From Escherichia coli (lineage in GTDB: Bacteria; Pseudomonadota; Gammaproteobacteria; Enterobacterales; Enterobacteriaceae): DNA of 1,140 bases. A model generated the notes under the pieces. That model searched no databases, had not been told where the DNA came from, and saw only the letters and a program-made list of their open reading frames with translations. Of this stretch, positions 1 through 1,140 are shown in pieces. The DNA lies in NCBI RefSeq assembly GCF_003334815.1, contig NZ_QOWO01000105.1, one strand, 5' to 3'. A program made the position numbers and the translations under genes. Numbering within the stretch: the first letter of the stretch is position 1; each line of letters starts with the position of its first letter.

Positions 1-8
1 ATGTGCGA
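1..8 (-). ncRNA. RNA-OUT: 5' end (first 8 nt) of antisense RNA-OUT; the rest of the ~70-nt RNA lies upstream of the window
   Basis: The reverse complement of nt 1-8 (atgtgcga) is TCGCACAT, which matches the 5' end of RNA-OUT as I recall it (5'-UCGCACAU...). In IS10 the RNA-OUT 5' end is a few nt inside the transposase start codon and pairs with the RBS/AUG region of the transposase mRNA (RNA-IN). Only the complement of the start codon and the next 5 nt is visible here. Confidence 0.6.
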
Positions 9-1140
9 ACTCGATATTTTACACGACTCTCTTTACCAATTCTGCCCCGAATTACACTTAAAACGACTCAACAGCTTAACGTTGGCTTGCCACGCATTAC
101 TTGACTGTAAAACTCTCACTCTTACCGAACTTGGCCGTAACCTGCCAACCAAAGCGAGAACAAAACATAACATCAAACGAATCGACCGATTGTTAGGTAA
201 TCGTCACCTCCACAAAGAGCGACTCGCTGTATACCGTTGGCATGCTAGCTTTATCTGTTCGGGCAATACGATGCCCATTGTACTTGTTGACTGGTCTGAT
301 ATTCGTGAGCAAAAACGACTTATGGTATTGCGAGCTTCAGTCGCACTACACGGTCGTTCTGTTACTCTTTATGAGAAAGCGTTCCCGCTTTCAGAGCAAT
401 GTTCAAAGAAAGCTCATGACCAATTTCTAGCCGACCTTGCGAGCATTCTACCGAGTAACACCACACCGCTCATTGTCAGTGATGCTGGCTTTAAAGTGCC
501 ATGGTATAAATCCGTTGAGAAGCTGGGTTGGTACTGGTTAAGTCGAGTAAGAGGAAAAGTACAATATGCAGACCTAGGAGCGGAAAACTGGAAACCTATC
601 AGCAACTTACATGATATGTCATCTAGTCACTCAAAGACTTTAGGCTATAAGAGGCTGACTAAAAGCAATCCAATCTCATGCCAAATTCTATTGTATAAAT
701 CTCGCTCTAAAGGCCGAAAAAATCAGCGCTCGACACGGACTCATTGTCACCACCCGTCACCTAAAATCTACTCAGCGTCGGCAAAGGAGCCATGGGTTCT
801 AGCAACTAACTTACCTGTTGAAATTCGAACACCCAAACAACTTGTTAATATCTATTCGAAGCGAATGCAGATTGAAGAAACCTTCCGAGACTTGAAAAGT
901 CCTGCCTACGGACTAGGCCTACGCCATAGCCGAACGAGCAGCTCAGAGCGTTTTGATATCATGCTGCTAATCGCCCTGATGCTTCAACTAACATGTTGGC
1001 TTGCGGGCGTTCATGCTCAGAAACAAGGTTGGGACAAGCACTTCCAGGCTAACACAGTCAGAAATCGAAACGTACTCTCAACAGTTCGCTTAGGCATGGA
1101 AGTTTTGCGGCATTCTGGCTACACAATAACAAGGGAAGAC
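1..1140 (+). CDS. tnp: IS10/Tn10 transposase (IS4 family, DDE transposase), 3'-partial: codons 1-380 of an expected ~402
   Basis: Manual frame-1 translation from nt 1 gives 380 codons with no stop: MCELDILHDSLYQFCPELHLKRLNSLTLACHALLDCKTLTLTELGRNLPTKARTKHNIKRIDRLLGNRHLHKERLAVYRWHASFICSGNTMPIVLVDWSD...QIEETFRDLKSPAYGLGLRHS...GYTITRED. This matches the IS10 transposase as I recall it, with DDE residues at the expected positions (D97 nt 289-291 gac; D161 nt 481-483 gat; E292 nt 874-876 gaa) and the YREK signature Y285/R288/E292/K299. The frame is open to the last base, so the CDS is truncated by the window edge. Recognition is from memory, not a database search. The symbol tnp follows the Tn10 literature; this gene has no universally fixed symbol. 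Confidence 0.95.
   Translation, partial: MCELDILHDSLYQFCPELHLKRLNSLTLACHALLDCKTLTLTELGRNLPTKARTKHNIKRIDRLLGNRHLHKERLAVYRWHASFICSGNTMPIVLVDWSDIREQKRLMVLRASVALHGRSVTLYEKAFPLSEQCSKKAHDQFLADLASILPSNTTPLIVSDAGFKVPWYKSVEKLGWYWLSRVRGKVQYADLGAENWKPISNLHDMSSSHSKTLGYKRLTKSNPISCQILLYKSRSKGRKNQRSTRTHCHHPSPKIYSASAKEPWVLATNLPVEIRTPKQLVNIYSKRMQIEETFRDLKSPAYGLGLRHSRTSSSERFDIMLLIALMLQLTCWLAGVHAQKQGWDKHFQANTVRNRNVLSTVRLGMEVLRHSGYTITRED
9..45 (-). promoter_or_regulatory. pOUT: pOUT promoter region driving RNA-OUT (minus strand); -10-like hexamer TAAAAT at nt 16-21, -35 not confidently placed
   Basis: On the minus strand, nt 16-21 read TAAAAT (5 of 6 match to TATAAT), about 8 nt upstream of the inferred RNA-OUT start at nt 8. 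Candidate -35 hexamers on the minus strand are weak or mis-spaced: TTGGTA at nt 34-39 has only a 12-bp spacer, and AGAATT/CAGAAT at nt 38-44 has a 16-17 bp spacer but poor consensus match. The location agrees with the established position of pOUT just inside the 5' end of the transposase gene, firing outward. Confidence 0.55.
289..876 (+). other. Span containing the DDE catalytic triad codons (D97 nt 289-291, D161 nt 481-483, E292 nt 874-876) of the transposase
   Basis: The codons gac, gat and gaa are read directly in frame at these positions. Assignment as the catalytic triad follows established knowledge of Tn10/IS4-family transposases. E292 lies within the YREK-type motif Y285-x2-R288-x3-E292-x6-K299 (IYSKRMQIEETFRDLK). 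Confidence 0.8.

Follow-up and report, generated by a model that had tools for sequence, protein, structure and literature searches.

The IS10 transposase gene in the window

The stretch of 1140 nucleotides (nt) from Escherichia coli contig NZ_QOWO01000105.1 analysed here, which we call the window and which is taken at its full length, carries most of the transposase gene (tnp) of the insertion sequence IS10, the element that also forms the arms of the transposon Tn10. Frame 1 is open throughout the window, its 1140 bases making 380 codons with an ATG start and no stop codon. Gapless alignment to complete 1329-bp copies placed the window at IS10 nt 108-1247. The coding sequence, at window positions 1..1140 on the + strand, therefore corresponds to codons 1-380 of 402, that is to the 5' 94% of the transposase gene. 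Missing from the window are IS10 nt 1-107 and 1248-1329: the outside 107 nt hold the terminal repeat, the promoter pIN and most of the antisense RNA RNA-OUT, and the inside 82 nt hold the end of the gene (22 codons and the stop) together with the inside terminal repeat. A previous annotation made from the letters alone (the sequence-only reading) had stated that the window begins exactly at the ATG and includes neither an IS10 terminus nor flanking DNA, and the alignment bears this out; the additional truncation of the gene at the 3' end went unmentioned there. The window does not hold a complete 402-codon transposase reading frame, codons 381-402 and the stop being absent, and this is attributed to a contig end and not to a defective element.

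The assignment to the IS10 transposase, already proposed in the sequence-only reading, was confirmed by the 100% identity of the window to IS10 copies and by the score of its product against the NCBIfam model NF033591 (IS4-family transposase), which is 400.5 bits for a cut-off of 152. Annotated genes that are 100% identical to the window are named 'IS4-like element ISVsa5 family transposase', 'ISVsa5 family' being the label that the NCBI annotation pipeline (RefSeq) gives to IS10. The window matched 2182 records of complete E. coli genomes, belonging to 1820 of 5426 genomes, and 2269 plasmid records from Escherichia, Klebsiella, Salmonella, Enterobacter, Shigella, Vibrio and others, nearly all of them at ≥99% identity. 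This match is far beyond chance, and the window is an ordinary, very common and already known IS10 transposase gene of the IS4 family, as found in the Tn10 arms. Biologically it is a textbook element to which the window adds nothing new, and its value lies in the interpretation.

The DDE transposase catalytic domain (Pfam PF01609, DDE_Tnp_1; E = 2.1e-24) covers residues 90-327 of the product, at window positions 268..981 on the + strand. The translation presents D97, D161 and E292 (nt 289-291, 481-483 and 874-876, + strand), which, following the established biochemistry of IS10/Tn10, we take to be the catalytic residues. The Y-(2)-R-(3)-E-(6)-K signature is also read from the translation on the + strand, with Y285, R288, E292 and K299 all at the expected positions. 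The transposase of Tn5 / IS50 and other IS4-family DDE transposases have the DDE_Tnp_1 domain and the NCBIfam IS4 class in common with the window product. They are too far from it for a match to a sequence of known structure, and a comparison of the product with PDB sequences gave no chain at E ≤ 0.01. The hairpin cut-and-paste chemistry is common to IS10 and Tn5 / IS50.

The full 402-residue IS10 DDE transposase binds the terminal repeats of about 23 bp, and excision proceeds, with IHF, through hairpin-mediated double-strand cuts. The element inserts into 9-bp targets resembling NGCTNAGCN, which become duplicated, and its expression is restrained by the weak Dam-sensitive promoter pIN, the antisense RNA-OUT and Hfq. 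The terminal inverted repeats CTGATGAATCCCC... and ...GGGGATCTCTCAG, which bound the 1329-bp IS10, were both seen in loci holding sequence identical to the window.

Allele state and the recurrent break before nt 1249

The differences between the Tn10 arms were measured directly on the R100 Tn10 record. The two R100 arms differ at 15 sites (nt 24, 25, 27, 47, 83, 107, 410, 425, 903, 1249, 1268, 1271, 1272, 1281 and 1300), which change the transposase, from right to left, by V266I, L381S, A389T and A398V. Compared with the R100 copy of IS10-Right (IS10R, GenBank J01829, RefSeq protein WP_001339197.1), the active Tn10 arm, the window has the same base at 1139 of 1140 positions. The lone mismatch is synonymous and lies at IS10 nt 203 (window 96..96, + strand), where the window has A and both R100 arms have C. 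Compared with the R100 copy of IS10-Left (WP_001352368.1), the weakly active Tn10 arm, four mismatches are found (nt 203, 410, 425 and 903; 99.6% identity). At the three diagnostic sites of the alignment, all on the + strand, the window carries the IS10-Right allele: T at nt 410 (window 303..303), where the archetypal IS10-Left has C; A at nt 425 (318..318), where IS10-Left has G; and G at nt 903 (796..796), which gives Val266 where the A of IS10-Left gives Ile266. With these alleles, the window is no archetypal IS10-Left. Of the four amino-acid differences, three (L381S, A389T and A398V) sit in the 22 codons absent from the window, so that the window cannot reveal whether its transposase has the active or the weak C-terminus.

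In the Tn10 of E. coli TUM9868 (NZ_CP128923.1), both IS10 arms are identical to the window at 1140 of 1140 bases. These arms differ from each other only at four outside and six inside sites, nt 48-1248 being identical between them, and they are mosaic: on the tetD side the outside end is left-type, and on the gltS side a right-type core is joined to a left-type inside end. As this recombinant left arm (WP_001339175.1) is 100% identical to the window, the window could come from such a hybrid left arm. The statement that the window is identical to both Tn10 arms holds for TUM9868 and is false for R100, whose left arm differs at three internal sites; it was revised to a right-type core.

The first difference between the two types of inside end is IS10 nt 1249, which is T in right-type and C in left-type copies. 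The last full codon of the window, Asp380 (window 1138..1140, + strand), ends at nt 1247, 1 base before a recurrent contig end at nt 1248 and 2 bases before this T/C site. The recurrence was measured by counting the blocks of a public collection that hold an exact product of a given length. The 380-residue product, which corresponds to a break before nt 1249, was found in 2550 blocks, compared to 47 and 32 for the control products of 379 and 381 residues; the full-length product of 402 residues was found in 15382 blocks. If polymorphic sites are the cause of the breaks, peaks are predicted at the other internal sites, and both of those tested show them: the 265-residue product (break before nt 903) was present in 725 blocks against 69 for its 264-residue control, and the 100-residue product (break before nt 410) in 264 blocks against 54 for its 99-residue control. 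Every displayed contig with the 380-residue product ends 1141 nt after the ATG, at IS10 nt 1248. For the 265-residue product, scaffold L024 has an N-gap in place of exactly nt 903, and for the 100-residue product, contig L026 stops at nt 409.

Metagenome contigs were then scanned with the 32-mer at IS10 nt 1216-1247, which gave 48 contigs. Three of them run from the flank through nt 1 and stop exactly at nt 1248. The starting points of other contigs, which resume the sequence, lie 127 nt (nt 1122, six contigs), 55 nt (nt 1194, five contigs) and 76 nt (nt 1173, one contig) before nt 1249, and these distances match common assembler k values. Contigs with right-type and with left-type inside ends have the same start coordinates, which looks like the pattern of two branches leaving one node of a de Bruijn graph. 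In a few further contigs the first base lies 119, 127 or 141 nt ahead of nt 1329, which is the ordinary signature of a collapsed repeat end.

From the observed identity, coordinates, allele state and break recurrence, we infer that the window very probably arose at such a break, as a partial call of the IS10 tnp gene at the end of a short-read contig, in an assembly with at least two IS10 copies differing at their inside ends. Under this mechanism, the assembler would walk from unique flanking DNA via the outside end into the invariant IS10 core and would halt at nt 1248 owing to a graph fork at nt 1249 (T for right-type, C for left-type). The source assembly would hold at least two IS10 copies with different inside ends, belonging either to an intact Tn10 or to solo copies of both types.

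Some points weigh against this interpretation. The break counts are counts of database blocks and not of genomes. The displayed contigs with the 380-residue product end at nt 1248 by construction, having been chosen by their exact product, so that it is the ±1-codon controls and the metagenome scan that carry the argument. The behaviour of the assembler, namely the extension of a path through a repeat up to the fork, is something that we infer. The limit at 1140 bases could reflect the way in which the stretch was sampled and not a contig end. Finally, common cloning strains carry both IS10 types (PMC11148124), so that contamination by host DNA could yield the same fork.

An in-frame transposase 'gene' that starts at an ATG and has no stop codon need not be a pseudogene, and here it most likely marks a contig end. 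A stop at IS10 nt 1248 signals that both inside-end alleles are present in the sample, a signature left by Tn10 or by several IS10 copies that have diverged. Where such a stop is met, tet(B) and unresolved repeats should be looked for before gene disruption or contamination is claimed.

Solo copy, Tn10 arm or laboratory insertion

The sequence-only reading had left three contexts side by side, an arm of Tn10, a solo copy and an insertion from a cloning host. We agree that the window by itself cannot tell a Tn10 arm from a solo copy, and the choice is narrowed by the right-type core alleles at nt 410, 425 and 903 and by the break before nt 1249. The three situations that it had listed all exist: IS10 was seen as Tn10 arms in reference records and as solo copies with 9-bp duplications, and its transposition from cloning hosts into inserts is documented (PMC8867978, PMC2891674, PMC11148124). 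Since the break lies at the first inside-end polymorphism, the assembly would hold two inside-end variants of IS10, which makes a lone clone insertion the least likely of the three contexts. A natural Enterobacterales genome, either multi-copy or bearing Tn10, fits better than a single cloning-host insertion.

We give about even chances to the copy being a solo IS10 that transposed by itself into a chromosome or plasmid, another IS10 variant lying elsewhere in the genome. The ten longest contigs with the exact 380-residue product have ten different chromosomal-looking flanks, two assemblies contributing two contigs each, and some E. coli genomes carry up to 45 IS10 places. Solo IS10 copies with perfect 9-bp duplications were found in Providencia, Shewanella, Xenorhabdus and metagenomes; the eight solo metagenome copies all have such duplications, and three of the eight (L043, L046 and L074) are left-type. 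However, solo copies and Tn10 arms have outside flanks that look alike, so that the flanks of the contigs with the 380-residue product do not discriminate between the two, and the window itself has no flank.

Across 14 related loci, the target sites agree with NGCTNAGCN in 49 of the 84 bases that this consensus specifies (P = 9e-11), and these IS10 loci are real transposition products. Among the contigs with the 380-residue product, the flank of contig L003 shows 83.5% identity to the E. coli mhp operon, and that of contig L010 gave no match in E. coli genomes; the differing flanks indicate that several Enterobacterales-like hosts carry the truncated call. Paired contigs of the same assembly (L006 with L010, L007 with L009) might have flanked a single Tn10 on its two sides; this was rejected, as the 9-bp targets within a pair are not reverse-complementary.

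The other natural context, less probable than a solo copy and still to be taken seriously, is a sub-case of the assembly-break interpretation: the copy would be an arm of an intact or remnant Tn10, with its tetracycline resistance, and by its core alleles either IS10-Right or a recombinant arm. A Tn10 with an arm identical to the window beside tetD-tetC-tet(B)-tetR was seen in reference records, 840 of the 1820 complete E. coli genomes with IS10 (46%) contain the tetC-tetD core, and the Tn10 left junction is present in 363 records. The fork at nt 1249 is also what is expected from a Tn10 with a right and a left arm. On the other hand, complete E. coli genomes hold 6407 IS10 places against 896 places of the tetC-tetD core, which means that most IS10 places cannot be Tn10 arms, and the Tn10 left junction is lacking from about half of those records whose inside end is left-type (716 against 363). 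Among the metagenome contigs, ten complete IS10 copies had both flanks, of which eight were solo and one was a Tn10 right arm, in a count where short-read assembly is biased against Tn10. The window itself shows no tet genes.

The Tn10 structure, an inverted IS10 pair around tetR-tet(B)-tetC-tetD and jemABC/gltS-like genes, was confirmed in reference records only. By best match, the inside ends are right-type in 887 and left-type in 716 of the approximately 1262 E. coli records with any inside end, and both types occur together on approximately 341 of these 1262 records, a number derived as 887 + 716 - 1262. The idea that left-type inside ends are confined to Tn10 was rejected, both from the 716 records compared to the 363 with the left junction and from the existence of solo left-type copies with duplications.

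An artefact, in which IS10 jumped from an E. coli cloning host into an insert or host DNA contaminated the library, so that the sequence would be foreign to the organism given as its source, is very improbable, even though the phenomenon itself is well attested. IS10R was reported in 127 of 47,877 Addgene plasmids (PMC8867978), and among 109 reads with an IS from clone-based shotgun libraries of unrelated organisms, 68 had IS10, which had reached K-12 strains via laboratory Tn10 genetics (PMC2891674). The strains DH10B, JM109 and XL1-Blue carry both IS10R and IS10L (PMC11148124), and a mis-binned IS10 contig was met in a 'Collinsella' genome. Nevertheless, one insertion in a clone exists as a single copy, and its assembly should continue to nt 1329 and give a complete gene of 402 codons. 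To break at nt 1248, an assembly graph must contain two variants, and only bulk contamination by host DNA would reproduce this. Moreover, the long contigs with the exact 380-residue product have native Enterobacterales chromosomal flanks, and this product is very frequent among isolate genome assemblies.

The 'Collinsella' case is a 2.8-kb contig (CALDBJ010000089.1, L016 1-2802) of a metagenome-assembled genome (MAG) labelled 'uncultured Collinsella sp.', with IS10 nt 1-1309 at its end. E. coli plasmids of pig origin are 99.7-99.8% identical to its 1.5-kb flank, which encodes an alpha/beta hydrolase. Rather than an IS10 residing in Collinsella, the contig almost certainly represents plasmid DNA of an enterobacterium that was binned wrongly.

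Least probable of all is a biological truncation, in which a deletion or the insertion of a mobile element at nt 1248 would have left a real 380-codon pseudogene: IS10 copies interrupted by IS1 or IS26 are common on IncF plasmids, but no contig has foreign sequence beyond the break, the contigs just end, the break falls at the first polymorphic site with parallel peaks at other polymorphic sites, and the resuming contigs begin one k-mer before nt 1249 and continue as normal IS10 of either allele.

Mosaic haplotypes, the 5' edge and distribution

The IS10 haplotypes are mosaics of three blocks, the outside end (nt 24-107), the core (nt 203-903) and the inside end (nt 1249-1300), and at least eight distinct block combinations were present among the complete IS10 copies compared. 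Further mosaics were seen in E. coli 4/2-1, E. coli 50579417, Xenorhabdus and metagenomes; the mosaic loci are L012 (692-2020 and 8510-9838), L015, L020, L021, L043, L046 and L074. The comparison of these haplotypes suggests recurrent recombination or gene conversion between IS10 copies. Complete elements of the IS10-Left type lie outside Tn10 with perfect 9-bp target duplications (metagenome contigs L043, L046 and L074), and the 'weak' left arm does spread as a solo element. Solo IS10L copies have been reported in cloning strains as well (PMC11148124).

We put forward, tentatively, that the IS10 blocks reassort freely, that the IS10-Left haplotype and a hybrid of right-type core and left-type C-terminus both circulate as solo elements with fresh duplications, and that the window could be such a hybrid. 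If this is true, gene conversion between Tn10 arms would be frequent in nature, and elements of the IS10-Left type would be more mobile than the textbook allows, alone or in trans.

The metagenome contig OGMB01000229.1 (33,274 bp; ends L068 and L069) starts in a left-type inside end, from nt 1194, and ends in a left-type IS10 at nt 1-1248. IS10 pieces thus lie at both assembly breaks, on either side of a 30-kb segment, and the whole is possibly a composite structure other than Tn10.

The 5' edge of the window was placed relative to RNA-OUT. Contig L022 has a match to the Rfam model RF00240 (RNA-OUT) at 139-208 on the - strand, with 98.8 bits, the ATG of tnp being at L022 201. Window positions 1..8 are, on the - strand, the first 8 nt of RNA-OUT, whose 5' end lies at window position 8. 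They are part of the RNA-IN/RNA-OUT pairing region over the start codon, and the remaining RNA-OUT lies upstream of the window. An Rfam scan of the window at E ≤ 10, with the covariance model of RNA-OUT, a stem-loop RNA of 69-70 nt, included, gave no match, because only 8 nt of RNA-OUT fall inside it. Read relative to the Rfam-defined 5' end, the hexamer TAAAAT at window positions 16..21 on the - strand (21-16 in reading direction) precedes the start of RNA-OUT by 7 nt and is probably the -10 element of pOUT. A generic promoter scan of the window returned no two-hexamer promoter-like site, and a terminator scan of the window returned a single terminator-like hairpin, which is at chance level. 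There is no GATC anywhere in the window. Two GATC (Dam) sites are visible in the IS10 ends outside it, in the loci that hold those ends, and two Dam sites in the IS10 ends are known to regulate the element. RNA-OUT has been described as an antisense RNA of 69 nt that pairs through its first 35 nt with the region of translation initiation, IS10 being regulated also by Dam methylation and Hfq (PMC5006887).

Outside the clinical Enterobacterales, where it is abundant, IS10 is rare in reference genomes. The 32-mer was found in just six contigs of approximately 100,000 species-representative genomes, namely two of Shewanella and one each of Xenorhabdus szentirmaii, Providencia rettgeri, Vibrio cincinnatiensis and a mis-binned MAG. 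The Vibrio cincinnatiensis copy is approximately 97% identical and is a diverged relative.

Many IncF-type plasmids have one Tn10 remnant in common, for example the E. coli plasmid p2_0.1 (NZ_CP023854.1; L033 3001-4985). In this remnant, an IS1 inside the IS10 tnp gene splits the window match approximately 45 nt from its start, and the sequence continues with a tetD fragment, tetC and an incomplete tet(B) adjoining IS26. It looks like a widely inherited lineage marker.

The sole phage record with the sequence is the immunity region of Enterobacteria phage CL707 (EF120459.1; L032 3845-5055), in which the IS10 tnp gene is 100% identical over the window, adjoins the N-side of the lambdoid immunity region and is cut off where the record ends.

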